From Candidatus Limnocylindrales bacterium (GTDB lineage Bacteria; Chloroflexota; Limnocylindria; QHBO01): a stretch of DNA of 60,887 bases. Shown piece after piece: positions 3,144-11,997 of the stretch. The translations under genes were made by a program, and so were the position numbers. The notes under the pieces were generated by a model. The model saw nothing but the letters and a program-made list of their open reading frames with translations. It did not search any database and was not told where the DNA came from. Position 1 is the first letter of the stretch, and each line of letters opens with the position of its first letter. Location of the stretch: NCBI GenBank assembly GCA_035540715.1, contig DATLGA010000095.1, positions 1 through 60,887 on the forward strand, read 5' to 3'.

Positions 3144-3968
3144 GTGCGACGGCTGCCGGACCCCATGAGCCGTCTCGTCGTTCACGACGAGGCCGAGCAC
3201 CGCCTCGGGGGCGCGGTGCCCAGCCCGGCGGTCGCATTCCTCCTCTCGATGCTGGCCCTGCCGGCCCTCTTCTGGCTCGTGATGCTGAAGCGCACGACGG
3301 TCTACACGGCGCCGGAGGAGTGGATCATGACGAACGTCGTGCCCGCCGTGCACACCTGGGTGCAGACCCACCTGCCACCCGTGGAGCTCATGATCCTGGG
3401 CATCAGCGCGCTCGGCAGCGGCTGGTTCGTGGCCCTCGCCTTCGCCGCACTCGGGCTCCTGGCGCTCGCGCGCGGGCGCCGCGACCTCGCTCTCCTCCTG
3501 GCGCTCGGGACGCTGTGCTTCCCGATCGAGTGGGCGCTGAAATACTTCACCTCGGCCGAGGTCATCTCGCTGCCGGCTCTCGTCAGCGCGATCTTCAACG
3601 TCGACGAGGTCGGTCTCGACGACATCGCCGACTTCCCCGCGGGGCATGCGCTGCGCGCCACGGTTCTCTACGGCCTGGCGGCGTTCTGCGTGGCGCGCCT
3701 TGCGCACGATCACCGGCAGGGGTACATCGCCTACGTCGTGGCCGCGGCGCTGATCGGTGCCATCTCGCTGACGCGCATCTACCTCGGCGCTCACTTCCCG
3801 ATGGACATCATCGGCGGCTGGATGGCCGGCGGGTCGCTGCTCGCCATCCTCGTCGCGATTCACGTGCTCGACGTCGACGAGAAGGAGCGAGCCCGCGAGC
3901 TCGCCGCGGCGCGCAGCCGCGGCCGGCGTGTGGCCGTGCCGCGCCGCGAGCGGCCGTCGCCTCCTTGA
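3144..3968 (+). CDS. PAP2-family membrane phosphatase
   Basis: Multi-pass membrane protein with PAP2 motifs: ..FPAGHALRA.. and ..LTRIYLGAHFPMDIIGGW... GTG start lies 8 nt after a TATACT box. An alternative ATG is at 3165. Confidence 0.75.
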   Translation: MRRLPDPMSRLVVHDEAEHRLGGAVPSPAVAFLLSMLALPALFWLVMLKRTTVYTAPEEWIMTNVVPAVHTWVQTHLPPVELMILGISALGSGWFVALAFAALGLLALARGRRDLALLLALGTLCFPIEWALKYFTSAEVISLPALVSAIFNVDEVGLDDIADFPAGHALRATVLYGLAAFCVARLAHDHRQGYIAYVVAAALIGAISLTRIYLGAHFPMDIIGGWMAGGSLLAILVAIHVLDVDEKERARELAAARSRGRRVAVPRRERPSPP

Positions 3969-5876: not shown

Positions 5877-6887
5877 TTGCGCTCTTCACGACTCCTCCTG
5901 GCCACCTTCGCCTTCGTGCTGGCCGCATGCCAGGCCGCCCCCGGCGTCACCGATGCGCCCGACAGCCCCGGCGAGCTTCGCCAGATCACGCTGCTCCTCG
6001 GTTACCGCCCCGACGTTCAGTTCGCGCCGTTCTACGTGGCGCAGCAGGAGGGCTTCTACGCCGATGCGGGCCTCGAGGTCACGATCGAGCATCGCCAGGC
6101 GCCAGACGTCCAGCGGCTCGTCGGATCGGGCGAGGCCGAGTTCGGCGTGGCGGATGCCACCGACGTCATGATCGGCCGCACCTCGGGCATCCCGATCCGT
6201 TACGTCTCGACGCTGTACCAGTCGTTCCCGGTCGCGCTCATCGGTGAGGCGGGAACGGTGCCCCAGGAACCGGCCGAGCTGGACGGCATGTCGATCGGCA
6301 CGCCCGGCCGGTTCGGCTCCTCATGGCACGCGCTGCTGGCTCTGCTCGAGGCCGGCGGCCTCACCGCCGACGACGTCACGATCCGCGAGTATCCGCAGTT
6401 CAACCAGGTCGACGGCCTGTCGAACGGCGACGTCGACCTCATCACCGGCTTCCGAAACAACGAGCCGCTGCGTCTCGAGGCGCGCGACATGGACGTGGAC
6501 CTGCTCACCGTGGACGACACCGTGCCGCTGCCCGGCCCGGGTGTCATCGCCGGAGACGAGCTGATCGCCGGCGACCCGGAGCTGGTCCGAGCCTTCGTCG
6601 AGGCGACGGCCGCCGCGCAGCGGGCCGTCATCGACGACCCCGATCTCGGCTTCGCAGCCGCCGAGCGCGAGGTCCCGACCATCGCCGAGGATCCCGAGGT
6701 GGCGCGCGCCGTCCTCGAAGCGACGATCGAGCTGTGGGTGGGCGACGGCTTCGACGACGGGGCTGTCGATCGGGACCTGTGGGAATCCGGCTACGACACG
6801 ATGCGAAGCCTCGAGTTCGTCGACGGATCGGTCCCGCTGGACGACATGATCGCTCCGGAGGTGATCGACGGCTCGTCAGGAGGCTGA
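5877..6887 (+). CDS. ABC substrate-binding lipoprotein, NMT1/THI5-like (candidate riboflavin-binding RibY-like)
   Basis: TTG start after AAAGGA. Lipoprotein signal MRSSRLLLATFAFVLAAC. The stretch ..LLLGYRPDVQFAPFYVAQQEGFYADAGLEV.. is typical of NMT1/THI5-type binding proteins. Confidence 0.8.
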   Translation: MRSSRLLLATFAFVLAACQAAPGVTDAPDSPGELRQITLLLGYRPDVQFAPFYVAQQEGFYADAGLEVTIEHRQAPDVQRLVGSGEAEFGVADATDVMIGRTSGIPIRYVSTLYQSFPVALIGEAGTVPQEPAELDGMSIGTPGRFGSSWHALLALLEAGGLTADDVTIREYPQFNQVDGLSNGDVDLITGFRNNEPLRLEARDMDVDLLTVDDTVPLPGPGVIAGDELIAGDPELVRAFVEATAAAQRAVIDDPDLGFAAAEREVPTIAEDPEVARAVLEATIELWVGDGFDDGAVDRDLWESGYDTMRSLEFVDGSVPLDDMIAPEVIDGSSGG

Positions 6888-8438: not shown

Positions 8439-8702
8439 TCAGGCCGCCTGGTCGACGGCCTCGACGAACCAGCGATGTCGTCGCGGGTCGTAGACGACCG
8501 ACGCCTGGCCGCCCTCCGCAGTCCGCAGGAGATAGATGACCCGCGGACCCCGATCCGCGGGGTAGGCGGACCGCTCGTCGCGGACGGCGTCGAGCTCGGT
8601 GATCCGGAGCTCGCAACCGTTCCACCGGACGCGCGACGGCCGGTCGGCCCGACCGTCCCATCGGACATCGGCCTCCACCGGCGTGATCTGGACGAGTGCC
8701 AT
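8439..8702 (-). CDS. hypothetical 87-aa soluble protein, predicted SOS-inducible
   Basis: ATG preceded by GGAG at 8 nt. Its own promoter carries two LexA boxes. GC is strong at third codon positions. No TM segment or catalytic motif was recognised. Confidence 0.6.
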   Translation of the reverse strand: MALVQITPVEADVRWDGRADRPSRVRWNGCELRITELDAVRDERSAYPADRGPRVIYLLRTAEGGQASVVYDPRRHRWFVEAVDQAA

Positions 8703-8740
8703 GGTGATGCTCCTTCAGCTGCGAAACCTGCCCGGAGCAC

Positions 8741-8756
8741 TCGAACAGGCGTTCGA
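8741..8756. promoter_or_regulatory. LexA operator (SOS box) 1
   Basis: Perfect palindrome TCGAACaggcGTTCGA, downstream of the predicted -10 of the small-ORF promoter. Confidence 0.8.
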
Positions 8757-8765
8757 TGGACGCAG

Positions 8766-8795
8766 ATCGTATCGAACAAACGTTCGATCCGTCAA
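8766..8795 (-). promoter_or_regulatory. sigma-70-type promoter with embedded LexA operator (SOS box 2 at 8772..8787)
   Basis: Minus strand reads TTGACG - 18 nt - TACGAT. The spacer contains the perfect palindrome TCGAACgtttGTTCGA. Confidence 0.75.
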
Positions 8796-10009
8796 GCCTC
8801 ATCGCGAGATGGCGCCTCGGGCCGCTCCCCGAAGTCGAAGCGGCGGGCGGGCCGCTCCACCAGGAGCCGTGCGCGGGTGATCGCCTCGTCGCCGAAGCGC
8901 TGACGGACGAGGTCGATCGACGTCGCGAGCCGATCGCCGCGCTCGGGTGCGTCGAAGAGGGTCAGCTGTTGCGCGTCGCTCAGCGAGATCGCGGTCAGTC
9001 CGATGAGGCGCACCCCGCGCCCGGCGGCCAGCGTCCGGCGCAGCAGGGCCAGCGCCGTCTCGTACAGCGGTGTCGATTCACGCGTCTGCCGCGGGAGGGG
9101 CGACTGCCGCGTCAACGTCTCGAAGCCCTCGTAGCGCAGCTTCAGCTGCACCGCCCCGGCGGCGAGATCGTGCCGGCGCAGGCGGCTCGCGACCGACTCG
9201 GCCAGGTCGAGCAGCGTCGCCTCGAGGCGGCGGGGATCGGCCGTATCGGTGCGGAAGGTGTGCTCGTGCCCGATGCTCTTCGGCACGTGAGCCGGCTGCA
9301 CCGGCGACAGATCGATGCCCCGCGCGCGTGCCGCGAGGTCGTCTCCATGGCGGCCGAAGCGCCGATGCAACGTCTCGTCGGGCAGGGCCGCCAGCTGGCC
9401 GATGGTCGTGACGCCGTACTCGGCCAGCGCAGCCTGAGCTCGAGGGCCGACGCCCCAGAGGCGGCGAATCGGCAGCGGCGCGAGGAACGCTGCCTCGTCC
9501 CCGTCCGGTACGACCACGAGCGCGTCCGGCTTGCGCAGGTCCGAAGCAACCTTCGCGCACAGCTTGTTGCTCGCGACTCCGACGGAGACGACGAGCCCGA
9601 CCTCGTCGAGGACGCGCCCCTTGAGCGTCCGAGCGATCGCGGGTCCGTCGCCGAAGACGGCGACGCTTCCGGAGACGTCGAGAAAGGCCTCGTCGAGGCT
9701 GATCGGCTCGACGAGCGGCGTGTAGTCCGAAAAGATCGTCATGACCCGCTCGGACAGCTCGCGGTAGCGTTCCGGACGGCCCGGGAGGAAGACGCCGTCG
9801 GGGCATCGGCGGGCGGCCGTGCGGAGCGGCATGGCCGAGTGGACGCCGTACCGCCGAGCCTCGTACGACGCCGCGCTCACCACGCCTCGCTCGCCTGGCC
9901 GGCCGCCGACGATCACCGGCCTGCCGCGCAGCGACGGATCGTCGAGCACCTCGACGCTGGCATAGAAGGCGTCGAGGTCGGCGTGGATGATCGTGCGCGG
10001 CGCAGCCAT
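8792..10009 (-). CDS. dinB: DNA polymerase IV (Y-family)
   Basis: Catalytic motifs IIHADLDAFYASVE and SLDEAFLDVSG are intact. A QLTLF beta-clamp-binding motif lies near the C-terminus. Confidence 0.92.
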   Translation of the reverse strand: MAAPRTIIHADLDAFYASVEVLDDPSLRGRPVIVGGRPGERGVVSAASYEARRYGVHSAMPLRTAARRCPDGVFLPGRPERYRELSERVMTIFSDYTPLVEPISLDEAFLDVSGSVAVFGDGPAIARTLKGRVLDEVGLVVSVGVASNKLCAKVASDLRKPDALVVVPDGDEAAFLAPLPIRRLWGVGPRAQAALAEYGVTTIGQLAALPDETLHRRFGRHGDDLAARARGIDLSPVQPAHVPKSIGHEHTFRTDTADPRRLEATLLDLAESVASRLRRHDLAAGAVQLKLRYEGFETLTRQSPLPRQTRESTPLYETALALLRRTLAAGRGVRLIGLTAISLSDAQQLTLFDAPERGDRLATSIDLVRQRFGDEAITRARLLVERPARRFDFGERPEAPSRDEA

Positions 10010-10019
10010 CGGCAGCTGG

Positions 10020-11210
10020 TCAGGCGTCGAGTCTGACCGAGCCGGCGCCGCCCGGTGAGGCGAGCGAGAGAACGCGCCGCGCCTCTTCGCAGAGCGCCTC
10101 GCTCACGGCCGGGGCAGGACGGTCGAAGGGTTTGAGGGTGATCGCGACGGACCCCGCGACGCGGTCGAGCTGCCAGGTCCCGGCGACGAAGCCGTCGATG
10201 AGGAATGTCGGCCGGACGTCGGCGTTCCGGGTGAACACGGCGGACCGGTGCTCGCCGGCGATGATCCGCTGCCGGTGACGGGCGGCGTGCGACAGCAGGG
10301 CGCTGTCCCAGCGAGCGAGGAGTCGTGGAGGGGCCGGCGTCTCGGCCTGCGGGCGCGGGGCGTCAGCGAGGTCGAGGAGGGTCCGTCCGTCGTCGCCGCG
10401 GAACGCGACGACATCGGTGCCGAGGTCGGCGATCGCCTGGCGCCACACGCCGATCCCGCCGGGACCGCGCCCGACGTACGCGACCAGGTCGTCGACGCTT
10501 GCCGGGCCGAACGCCGAGAGGTAACGGCGGGCAACGTGCGCGCGTGCGGCCGCCGGGTCGATCTCAGGCGGCTCCACGCCGAGCCAGTCGGCGGCGAGCG
10601 CGTACTTCGAACGGCCGTACCCCTCGCCGTCGTGCGGCACGTGGACGAGCGGCACGAAGGCGCTGAAGTGGATCCACGACGCGCGCAGGGTCACCCGCTC
10701 GTCCGGCTCACGCCAGCTCGGCCGCGACGCCTCGGTCGCTTCGGGCCCCACCTCCGAGGCGATCAGGCGGTCCAGCTCGAGCGAGGATCGTGGCGCTTCG
10801 CGCAACGCCGCGATCGCGGTCGCGTGGGCGGCCTGCATCCTTCGGCCGAGCGTCGACGCCCTCGGATCGGCCTTGAGCAGGATCCGCCAGCGGGCCAGCC
10901 GGCCCGGCTGGCAGACGGCGAACATCGGCCACAGGTCAGTGGCCGCGACGACGTGGATCGTGTTTCGCATGAGAGAGCTGCGCACGACCGCTCGCGCTGC
11001 GAGGGCAGCGCCCAGGTCGGCGGTCTCGGCGTCGGCCGCGCGCGCGGCGAGCGCGATCGGCGGCCACTCCGGGTGCTGCGCCTGGAGGGAGCCGAGGCGC
11101 CGCACGGCATCGGCCGGAGACGCGTGGAGTGGCTCGAGGAGCCCCTGGCGCGCCAGCGTCGCTCGATTGAGCTCCCGCGCCGTCAACGGCGCCGCCGGCG
11201 CCACCGGCAC
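10020..11210 (-). CDS. winged-helix DNA glycosylase family protein (YcaQ/AlkZ, HTH_42/DUF1006)
   Basis: N-terminal ..ELNRATLARQGLLEP..AVRRLGSLQAQHP.. is typical of the family and includes a Q-x-Q motif. GTG start lies 2 nt after the lexA stop. Confidence 0.75.
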   Translation of the reverse strand: MPVAPAAPLTARELNRATLARQGLLEPLHASPADAVRRLGSLQAQHPEWPPIALAARAADAETADLGAALAARAVVRSSLMRNTIHVVAATDLWPMFAVCQPGRLARWRILLKADPRASTLGRRMQAAHATAIAALREAPRSSLELDRLIASEVGPEATEASRPSWREPDERVTLRASWIHFSAFVPLVHVPHDGEGYGRSKYALAADWLGVEPPEIDPAAARAHVARRYLSAFGPASVDDLVAYVGRGPGGIGVWRQAIADLGTDVVAFRGDDGRTLLDLADAPRPQAETPAPPRLLARWDSALLSHAARHRQRIIAGEHRSAVFTRNADVRPTFLIDGFVAGTWQLDRVAGSVAITLKPFDRPAPAVSEALCEEARRVLSLASPGGAGSVRLDA

Positions 11211-11212
11211 GG

Positions 11213-11875
11213 TCAGCCGAGCCGGCGGATGACGCCGACGACCTTGCCCTGGATCTGGACGTCGGTGGCGAAGATCGGCTCCATCTCGGCATTGGCCGGC
11301 TGGAGGCGGATCCGATCCTTCTCGCGGAAGAACCGCTTCAGCGTCACGCCGTTGTCCTCGAGCAGCGCGACCACGATGTCGCCGTCGCGCGCGGTGGCCT
11401 GGGGCTGGACGATCACGAAGTCACCGTCGTCGATGAGGTCGTCGATCATGCTCTTGCCGCGAACGCGCAGGACGTACGAGTCCTCGCGGGCTTCGATCGA
11501 GCGCGGGACGTCGAGCGTCTCGGCCGCGTCCTCGTATGCCTCGATCGGCTGGCCGGCGGCGATCTCGCCCATGACCGGAAGTGCCAGGGTCTCGCGCTCG
11601 ACGGGCATGCGGAACGGTGTGACCTTCGAGCTGTCCGCCGGGCGCGACATCGGCTCTCGCGGCGCGGTCACGCGAAGCGCCCGCGAGTGCTTGCCGCCGC
11701 GCTCCAGCAGGCCGTCCTTCTCGAGCGCCAGCAGGTGGTGGTGAACCGCGCTGGTCGAGGCGAGACCAACGGCATCAGCGATCTCGCGAACCGACGGCGG
11801 ATACCCGCGCTCTTCGACGGTGCGAACGATGCAGTCAAGGATCCGCTGCCGTCGCTCCACGTCGTGTCTGGTCAA
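11213..11875 (-). CDS. lexA: LexA repressor
   Basis: Start moved to TTG 11875, 5 nt after GGAGGG, giving 220 aa. N-terminal wHTH ..RQRILDCIVRTVEERGYPPSVREIADAVGL.STSAVHHHLLALEKDGLL... C-terminal S24 peptidase with ..RVRGKSMIDD.. and the Lys region ..VTLKRF.. Confidence 0.92.
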   Translation of the reverse strand: MTRHDVERRQRILDCIVRTVEERGYPPSVREIADAVGLASTSAVHHHLLALEKDGLLERGGKHSRALRVTAPREPMSRPADSSKVTPFRMPVERETLALPVMGEIAAGQPIEAYEDAAETLDVPRSIEAREDSYVLRVRGKSMIDDLIDDGDFVIVQPQATARDGDIVVALLEDNGVTLKRFFREKDRIRLQPANAEMEPIFATDVQIQGKVVGVIRRLG

Positions 11876-11907
11876 GAGTCCCTCCGCTGGGCGTGCGTGT
11901 GACAGGC

Positions 11908-11937
11908 ACGCTAGCAGAACGCATGTTCTAATGTCAA
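11908..11937 (-). promoter_or_regulatory. lexA promoter with embedded LexA operator (AGAACgcatGTTCT, 11916..11929)
   Basis: Minus strand reads TTGACA - 18 nt - TAGCGT, with a GAAC-N4-GTTC palindrome in the spacer. This is the same architecture as the promoter at 8766..8795. Confidence 0.75.
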
Positions 11938-11997
11938 ACCGACCCCCACACGCTGGTATCATGGTCCGCCCGCATTTCCCGGATCCCTGGAGGCCGT

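Follow-up and report, generated by a model that had tools for sequence, protein, structure and literature searches.

What is the function of a small, unannotated gene that lies directly downstream of dinB in a member of the Chloroflexota and is preceded by two copies of a palindrome of the LexA-operator type? The gene is found in contig DATLGA010000095.1 of Candidatus Limnocylindrales (60,887 nucleotides, 60.9 kb; the whole of this stretch is called the window below), where an open reading frame (ORF) of 87 amino acids (aa) occupies positions 8702-8439 of the minus strand, from ATG 8702 to the stop codon TGA at 8441-8439. A first-pass annotation of the locus had read the gap before the ORF as a tightly LexA-repressed promoter and had compared the product with small DUF6504-type proteins that accompany Y-family polymerases. 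The analysis supports, with moderate confidence, an SOS gene repressed by LexA whose product is a small effector with a short lifetime; that confidence covers the regulatory and gene-level statement, as read from sequence, and not the target of the effector.

All promoter elements were read on the minus strand. The -35 hexamer TTGACG (8795-8790) was found to overlap the stop codon TGA of dinB (8794-8792), followed by an 18-nucleotide (nt) spacer filled by LexA operator 1 (TCGAACGTTTGTTCGA, 8787-8772), a perfect TCGAAC-N4-GTTCGA palindrome, and by the -10 hexamer TACGAT of the TAnnnT type (8771-8766). Operator 2 (TCGAACGCCTGTTCGA, 8756-8741), also a perfect TCGAAC-N4-GTTCGA, was found to lie across the predicted transcription start, its GAAC core beginning 11 nt past the -10 hexamer and its centre standing 31 base pairs (bp) from that of operator 1. 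It is abutted by the leader segment GTGCTCCGGGCAGG (8740-8727), the counterpart of a conserved 'GTGCCC(C)' element, followed by the ribosome-binding site AAGGAG (8715-8710) and by the ATG, which lies 89 nt from the dinB stop. The -35 hexamer, the spacer with its palindrome, the -10 hexamer, the second palindrome, the 89-nt gap and the ATG had all been placed at these same positions by the first-pass annotation; its ribosome-binding site was also present, with a spacer of 7 nt in place of the 8 nt given. Operators 1 and 2 were found to be the only perfect 16-mers TCGAAC-N4-GTTCGA in the window. The 12-mer core GAAC-N4-GTTC occurs three times (both operators and the lexA promoter) against about 0.5 expected by chance, and at least three copies were obtained in 2 of 100 shuffles. 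A consensus promoter scan independently picked TTGACG-18-TACGAT; over 4.7 kb it gave 2 promoter-like sites where 0.1 were expected. The small ORF is preceded by a complete promoter of the predicted sigma-70 type with two consensus Gram-positive-type operators to which LexA would bind. A complete promoter with two consensus operators is what had been claimed at first pass, and the ORF behind it proved to be conserved and selected.

In Firmicutes and Actinobacteria, GAAC-N4-GTTC has been described as the LexA-binding motif (PMC3323433). The LexA encoded in the window was found to carry a helix-turn-helix domain and an S24 peptidase domain. Its own promoter contained TTGACA (11937-11932) and TAGCGT (11913-11908) on the minus strand, separated by 18 nt, with a single GAAC-N4-GTTC box (GAACATGCGTTC, 11928-11917) within this -35/-10 spacer, which is the position taken by box 1 at the small ORF. 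Since the motif stands in the promoter of lexA itself, it provides an internal reference that calibrates the LexA motif for the lineage. The longest lexA ORF (11213-11962, minus strand, 249 aa, ATG 11962) was found to extend across the lexA promoter with its LexA box; translation must in fact begin downstream of about 11900, and the LexA proteins of relatives are 216-217 aa long.

The ORF was found to belong to a sizeable family. An initial homologue search gave 155 clusters, nearly all of 87 aa and 64-77% identical, which make up the subfamily of the window, and an exhaustive profile search (HMMER) of 1.84 billion cluster representatives gave only 88 matches. Profile-seeded searches recovered two larger subfamilies of 1046 and 436 clusters (86-93 aa), which share 30-45% identity with the window protein. 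The three subfamilies together exceed 1,500 clusters and carry no annotation; searches of Pfam, NCBIfam, PHROGs, PADLOC and PDB sequences with the family gave nothing above threshold. The ratio of nonsynonymous to synonymous substitution rates (dN/dS) was 0.10-0.41 among diverged members of the window's subfamily, with a median of 0.13 over 497 pairs of the large subfamily. Judged by its substitution pattern, the small ORF is a real gene under purifying selection. The first-pass claim had been made to depend on conservation and selection of the ORF in relatives that keep the boxes, and there it was found to be conserved with dN/dS of about 0.1-0.4. The source names of the members were Chloroflexi/Chloroflexota, Chloroflexia, Ca. 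Limnocylindria or Ca. Limnocylindrales, except for two contigs labelled Steroidobacteraceae from metagenome-assembled genomes (MAGs). By this distribution the small ORF represents a new, Limnocylindria-specific protein family.

The two exceptional contigs (L004 and L006, from MAGs labelled uncultured Steroidobacteraceae, Gammaproteobacteria) were found to contain a Limnocylindria-type locus with a DinB identity of 78-80%, and they are probably mis-binned. Apparent members of 110-140 aa (L012 6001-6384, P0311 and others) were found to be start-codon miscalls that run through the promoter and the operators; the real start of L012 is the ATG at 6112, after AAGGAG. A 516-aa protein (P0194) is a subtilase (Peptidase_S8 and Inhibitor_I9) whose last approximately 60 residues correspond to the C-terminal half of the family domain; it was rejected as a real fusion and is a probable assembly or gene-call chimera.

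Conservation of the promoter was surveyed in 93 loci, namely the window, 12 loci from genomes or assemblies and 80 from metagenomes, the last being scanned with a pattern from the major subfamily. Boxes were counted within 170 nt upstream of the ORF in 72 distinct upstream regions, and the presence of LexA boxes in related genomes, proposed as a check at first pass, was borne out by two perfect GAAC-N4-GTTC boxes in 71 of these 72. The exception was L043, in which a longer leader puts box 1 past the 170-nt span; the box is visible in a longer alignment. With a background density of 0.46 sites per kb, one mismatch permitted, conservation of the paired boxes is far in excess of chance. The GAAC and GTTC arms were invariant in 144 boxes. 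All 72 promoters contained TTGACA or TTGACG as the -35 hexamer, with box 1 in the -35/-10 spacer beginning 8-10 nt from the first base of that hexamer; a TAnnnT -10 hexamer was present 17-18 nt past the -35 in 55 of them. The GAAC of box 2 starts 8-14 nt past the -10, that is, over the start site, and the box-to-box distance was 30-35 bp, or about three helical turns, in nearly all loci. AAGGAG before the start codon was also conserved in the leader alignments. This two-box geometry was found to hold in about 99% of the orthologous loci, across three subfamilies with only 30-45% protein identity; the third subfamily retains the design save for L096, which has a single box. In a subgroup with 2.2 kb between dinB and the small ORF the two-box promoter stays with the ORF, and the operators therefore belong to the small ORF.

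The lexA promoter of relatives followed the same pattern as that of the window. The one-box lexA promoter was kept in five relatives (L001-L003, L005 and L007), and a perfect box adjoining lexA was found in L093, L094 and L096 of the third subfamily. The 12-kb loci L001, L002, L005, L093, L094 and L096 contained perfect boxes only at lexA and at the small ORF, and L003 and L007 contained one further perfect box each. The small ORF combines the motif of the lineage, a position at which it would occlude RNA polymerase, the same motif at lexA and its retention in orthologues, and by these features it would count as a member of the LexA regulon.

Downstream of operator 2, about 25 nt were found to be conserved in sequence in the three subfamilies (...GTTCTGTCGGnCGAGTGCCCCGGACGAC; alignment of 70 leaders, L008-L094), and another factor may bind this stretch. 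The leader gave no sign of a conserved RNA structure: RNAalifold recovered only the box palindrome and minimum free energy z-scores were near 0; an Rfam scan gave no leader match and one sub-threshold chance match elsewhere.

The encoded protein is small (about 10 kDa) and contains almost no Lys or Cys. No transmembrane segment was predicted, the maximum 19-residue hydropathy being 0.36, which agrees with its earlier description as a soluble product. The family was found to have a median isoelectric point (pI) of about 10.3, with 14-16 Arg and a median of 0 Lys. The scarcity of Lys exceeds that of the neighbouring DinB (about 1.7% Lys), and the lysine-free composition may reflect mere GC bias or a functional reason. 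Two AlphaFold2 models were compared, model 1 from a shallow alignment with a predicted local distance difference test score (pLDDT) of 85.5 and model 2 from a deeper, more diverse alignment headed by another subfamily with a pLDDT of 75.8. Both contained the same six-strand topology, and the small protein is accordingly modelled as all-beta. Foldseek searches with the two models against PDB and with one against BFVD gave best E-values of 0.15, 0.64 and 0.05 with template-modelling scores of 0.5 or less, and a PDB sequence search was empty. The most conserved stretch of the family was found in codons 41-54 (RDERSAYPADRGPR, 8582-8541, minus strand), in the loop between strands 3 and 4. Among 29 diverse members, R41, E43, G52 and P53 were invariant and A46 and R54 nearly so, within the motif R41-(D/E)-E-x-x-A-Y-P-x3-G-P-R54. 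Judged by its conservation and its place in the models, the loop is likely a contact surface and a candidate binding site.

The C-terminus was found to contain Ala-Ala (codons 86-87, 8447-8442, minus strand), a putative ssrA/RecN-like degron of the ClpXP type (C-motif 1). Ala-Ala ends 260 of 292 family proteins against 1.4% expected, despite differing tail lengths. The full set of four Ala codons and three stop codons is used at the end of the gene, and this synonymous variation indicates that Ala-Ala is kept at the amino-acid level. In model 2 the pLDDT falls below 50 for residues 86-89 (disordered), and the last block of model 1 averages 77. RecN is an SOS protein that is toxic if overproduced and whose level is set by ClpXP (PMC10165496), and by analogy the Ala-Ala tail would lead to rapid turnover by a ClpXP-type protease. 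A tmRNA, sought for the ssrA tag of the lineage, was not found in the window. Tight repression had been taken at first pass as the mark of a product harmful when made constitutively, a view to which the tail would lend indirect support.

Directly upstream of the small ORF lies dinB (8792-10009, minus strand), which encodes DNA polymerase IV (Pol IV). The window DinB was found to contain the IMS, IMS_HHH and IMS_C domains, with the QLTLF clamp motif kept and the catalytic residues D11/D13 and D105/E106 retained, and it passed the NCBIfam Pol IV cut-offs (375.8 against 367 and 372.5 against 256). With D11, D105 and E106 in place it is the bona fide Pol IV that it had been taken for. The locus had also been set apart from the imuA-imuB-dnaE2 cassette, and this distinction stands: the polymerase is catalytic, neither dnaE2 nor imuA is present at the locus or was seen flanking it in relatives, and no Pol III alpha was found among the 6 of 11 window ORFs of at least 650 aa that were scanned against Pfam, among them the four longest, each of more than 900 aa. 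In 33 distinct dinB upstream regions, dinB was found to have no perfect LexA box to itself. Synteny with dinB, another of the checks proposed earlier, held as adjacency and failed as a specific tie. The gene dinB is directly upstream of the small ORF in 42 of the 50 loci with enough flank, which is no tighter than FTCD_C directly downstream in 45 of 58. The whole block dnaB-lexA / DUF1232-rplI-dinB-ORF-FTCD_C-folD-fhs is syntenic class-wide, with local inversions and insertions, and adjacency alone therefore does not single out dinB. What points towards dinB is that it is without its own operator in most genomes, while the small ORF is the most tightly LexA-gated gene nearby.

Several features of the neighbourhood were found to vary. 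In the window, lexA and dinB are separated by an AlkZ-like DNA glycosylase gene (10020-11210, minus strand), the intergenic gaps being only 2 and 10 nt, and this suggests that the three form a lexA-alkZ-dinB operon governed by the one lexA operator; of the loci with listed genes, alkZ was seen only in those of the window's subfamily. An extracytoplasmic function (ECF) sigma factor gene and a gene for a 409-aa NHL-repeat, anti-sigma-like protein were found between dinB and the small ORF in L025, L029, L042 (1527-3301), L046 and L087. The interval between the small ORF and FTCD_C was found to contain a nucleotidyltransferase/HepT toxin-antitoxin pair in L012 (6545-7739) and a GH16 glycoside hydrolase gene in L008 (6400-7176). 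The DinB of the large subfamily (L008, L012, L017-L088) contained an extra tail of approximately 35-50 aa ending in the conserved acidic motif RD(S/T)LGDTD(L/I/V)DDIPPDDA, and the C-terminus of the window DinB is short (...RRFDFGERPEAPSRDEA). Co-variation of an acidic DinB tail with a basic ORF was considered and rejected, as both ORF subfamilies are basic and the long acidic tail is present in one only.

The following course of events is proposed. In the undamaged cell two LexA dimers, probably cooperating on the same face of the DNA, would block the binding of RNA polymerase and initiation, and repression would be tighter than at lexA itself, which has one box against two. DNA damage would bring about RecA-stimulated self-cleavage of LexA, followed by a burst of a basic, soluble, six-stranded beta protein of about 10 kDa, whose invariant loop R41-R54 would contact the target. 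The exposed C-terminal Ala-Ala would then direct the protein to ClpXP-type proteolysis, and its activity would be gone once LexA rebinds. As to the target, our tentative guess is a role on DNA at stalled forks, in concert with the neighbouring Pol IV. In most of these genomes that polymerase has no LexA box to itself, and the damage-inducible, self-limiting component would come from the small protein, UmuD'-like in role and without homology. A more specific form of this guess is rather doubtful: Pol IV, otherwise independent of LexA, would have the protein as a regulatory subunit that is induced by damage and timed by proteolysis, and the two would make up a two-component DinB system in Chloroflexota, a functional analogue of UmuD'2C or ImuA-ImuB whose small protein is unrelated to theirs and has a small beta fold not seen before. 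Apart from the checkpoint inhibitor considered below, the remaining probability for the target is spread over other DNA-binding or repair roles.

Several points weigh against the SOS effector and its proposed target. LexA binding, induction by damage, protein stability and interactions are all things that we infer from the DNA. The relative L096 has one box only at the small ORF. The window copy of the protein is near neutral (pI 6.6) and an outlier against the basic norm of the family. The residue that precedes the terminal Ala-Ala is mostly R, P, Q or A, against Leu in ssrA, and protease specificity is uncertain because of this difference at the -3 position. No fold or sequence relative of known function was found by which a target could be anchored. 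The link to dinB is weak, adjacency to FTCD_C being just as frequent and insertions occurring on both sides of the ORF, and the window dinB may be SOS-controlled anyway by co-transcription from the lexA promoter.

The alternative that survives best concerns the target and accepts the SOS regulation. The small protein could be an SOS checkpoint inhibitor, an analogue of SulA, YneA, DivS, ChiZ or SidA, which binds a component of division or replication initiation (e.g., FtsZ) and halts the cycle, the double operators and fast proteolysis keeping it harmless at other times. We regard an inhibitor of division or replication as possible and as nearly as likely as a Pol IV or fork factor. SOS division inhibitors are typically lineage-restricted small proteins, and yneA, divS and chiZ lie close to lexA. 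The present family is likewise a lineage-restricted small protein without homologues of known function, its repression would be very tight (two operators against one at lexA) and its tail is degron-like. In the window's and the third subfamily lexA was found within about 3 kb of the small ORF, whereas it is not nearby in the largest subfamily. The protein differs from the inhibitors of Gram-positive bacteria and Alphaproteobacteria in that it lacks a transmembrane segment and a LysM domain, and no match was found to the Pfam families SulA, RecA, DinI and Peptidase_S24. Its strongly basic, Arg-rich composition, moreover, fits nucleic-acid binding at least equally well.

An unlikely alternative is the one suggested at first pass, that the small protein is a DUF6504-type accessory of a Y-family polymerase, homologous to the small proteins of Actinobacteria. 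The gene adjoins a Y-family polymerase gene, and the window protein was found to match Pfam DUF6504 (PF20114) weakly over most of its length (residues 11-84, 15.9 bits, E 0.015). Matches at E < 1 were found in 7 of 25 close members, the best (E 1.7e-4) within the window's own subfamily only. The window score, however, lies below the gathering threshold of 24.2 bits, and 18 individually scanned members of other branches gave no match. The reciprocal searches did not reach the family either: no Pfam label was present among the listed matches of the family and profile-seeded searches, and those of the 88 representatives from the exhaustive search that were scanned against Pfam gave no DUF6504 match. 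The named members were all found in Chloroflexota, as Ca. Limnocylindria, and not in Actinobacteria, where the first-pass annotation had placed the proteins that it saw as similar, and a literature search found no paper on DUF6504. The resemblance proposed earlier thus finds no support above threshold, and remote homology to DUF6504 is possible.

An improbable explanation is that the operators mainly serve the downstream folate genes FTCD_C, folD and fhs, SOS read-through raising the supply of dTMP and purines, while the small ORF would be merely carried along or would encode a leader peptide. Within the window, the -35 of the FTCD_C/folD promoter (CTGACG, 8442-8437, followed after 16 nt by TACAAT, 8420-8415, minus strand) overlaps the stop codon of the small ORF, and no terminator-like hairpin was found between the ORF and FTCD_C, which is adjacent in 45 of 58 loci; damage-induced read-through into the folate genes is possible there. 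FTCD_C nevertheless has its own promoter, with a 'CCTACAAT' -10 conserved in 60 of 78 distinct downstream regions. In the subfamilies labelled B and C, a GC hairpin of at least 8 bp was found 40-80 nt past the ORF stop in 60 of 71 regions, with a loop that is always CCGGTAY and stems that covary in 36 distinct forms (e.g., L017 at about 3870-3900, L023 and L043); this hairpin is absent from the window's subfamily. In some loci, unrelated genes (GH16, HepT/MNT) put 1-1.9 kb between the small ORF and FTCD_C. Above all, the ORF protein is strongly conserved and selected, including its C-terminal signal at the amino-acid level, and read-through cannot explain this.

Two further features of the downstream region were observed. 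Another hairpin, whose loop is CCCTCCC, often stands ahead of the GC hairpin. The GC hairpin could act as a terminator that lacks a U-tract, or else be a specific RNA element or a protein-binding one. In the larger subfamilies the FTCD_C -10 sits 6-8 nt before the GTG/ATG start, which suggests a leaderless FTCD_C mRNA.

Tandem LexA boxes are typical of colicin genes and some toxin genes. A mobile, phage-derived or toxin-like gene under incidental LexA control, as in colicins, prophage genes and SOS-induced toxins, would fit a small orphan protein behind such boxes, but it is very improbable here given the fixed chromosomal position within a class-wide syntenic block, the lack of family relatives in the 2.9 million viral contigs searched, the lack of a PHROG or PADLOC match, the chance-level matches (E >= 2) obtained by tblastn against annotated plasmids and the lack of a conserved partner antitoxin or immunity ORF beside the small ORF.

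For the LexA-repressed effector gene, what is new is a member of the SOS regulon and a protein family; neither the DUF6504 assignment nor a link peculiar to dinB is established. Having two operators, where lexA has one and dinB has none to itself, the small ORF would be under the strictest LexA control in its neighbourhood. Little is known of SOS effectors in phyla other than the model ones, and the Limnocylindria, which abound in soils and lakes, are for the most part uncultured. A sizeable family that is unannotated and has no structural neighbour offers a clean candidate for such an effector. Should control of Pol IV or of the cell cycle hold true, it would represent a new way to keep a mutagenic or growth-arresting activity brief. 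Dual operators together with a C-terminal Ala-Ala would also provide a simple signature by which pulse-expressed genes could be found in other genomes.

Among the known systems, DUF6504 (PF20114) is alike in being uncharacterised and about 90-100 aa long, with a weak near-full-length match to some members; it differs in that the match is sub-threshold, absent in the 18 members of other branches and not reached reciprocally, and in its phylum. The dinB-yafN-yafO-yafP arrangement of Escherichia coli also contains small genes directly downstream of dinB in the SOS regulon. The LexA box, however, precedes dinB in E. coli, whereas here dinB is without its own box and the small gene has two; yafN-yafO-yafP encode a toxin-antitoxin pair and an acetyltransferase, and the small protein matches none of these families. 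DinI, an SOS-induced RecA modulator of 81 aa that acts by binding its partner, is similar in size, cytosolic location and LexA control, whereas it is alpha/beta and acidic and the small protein is predicted all-beta and basic, with no Pfam DinI match. SulA, YneA, DivS, ChiZ/Rv2719c and SidA are lineage-specific and small, with strong LexA control and proteolysis (predicted here), and several lie near lexA; the small protein differs in being basic, all-beta by prediction and without a SulA domain, transmembrane segment or LysM domain, although an analogous function is still compatible.

The UmuD/UmuD'-UmuC system (E. coli Pol V) likewise contains a small, beta-rich, SOS-controlled protein encoded beside a Y-family polymerase gene, and UmuD/UmuD' levels are limited by Lon/ClpXP proteolysis. 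If the Pol IV reading holds, polymerase activity would be damage-dependent and transient in both. The small protein differs from UmuD in having no S24 peptidase domain, no similarity in sequence or fold and almost no Lys for a Ser-Lys dyad. Its gene lies downstream of the polymerase gene with its own promoter, in contrast to the upstream position of umuD within one operon. The partner would be a DinB-type polymerase and not UmuC, and no evidence of self-cleavage was found in the small protein. RecN of E. coli is a large SMC-like ATPase without homology to the small protein, in which the residue before Ala-Ala is usually R, P, Q or A; the RecN tail is LAA, and recN has multiple LexA boxes. The likeness lies in the regulatory logic only, in which multiple LexA operators and a C-terminal Ala-Ala are combined and would give, as predicted here for the small protein, a sharp and self-limiting pulse.

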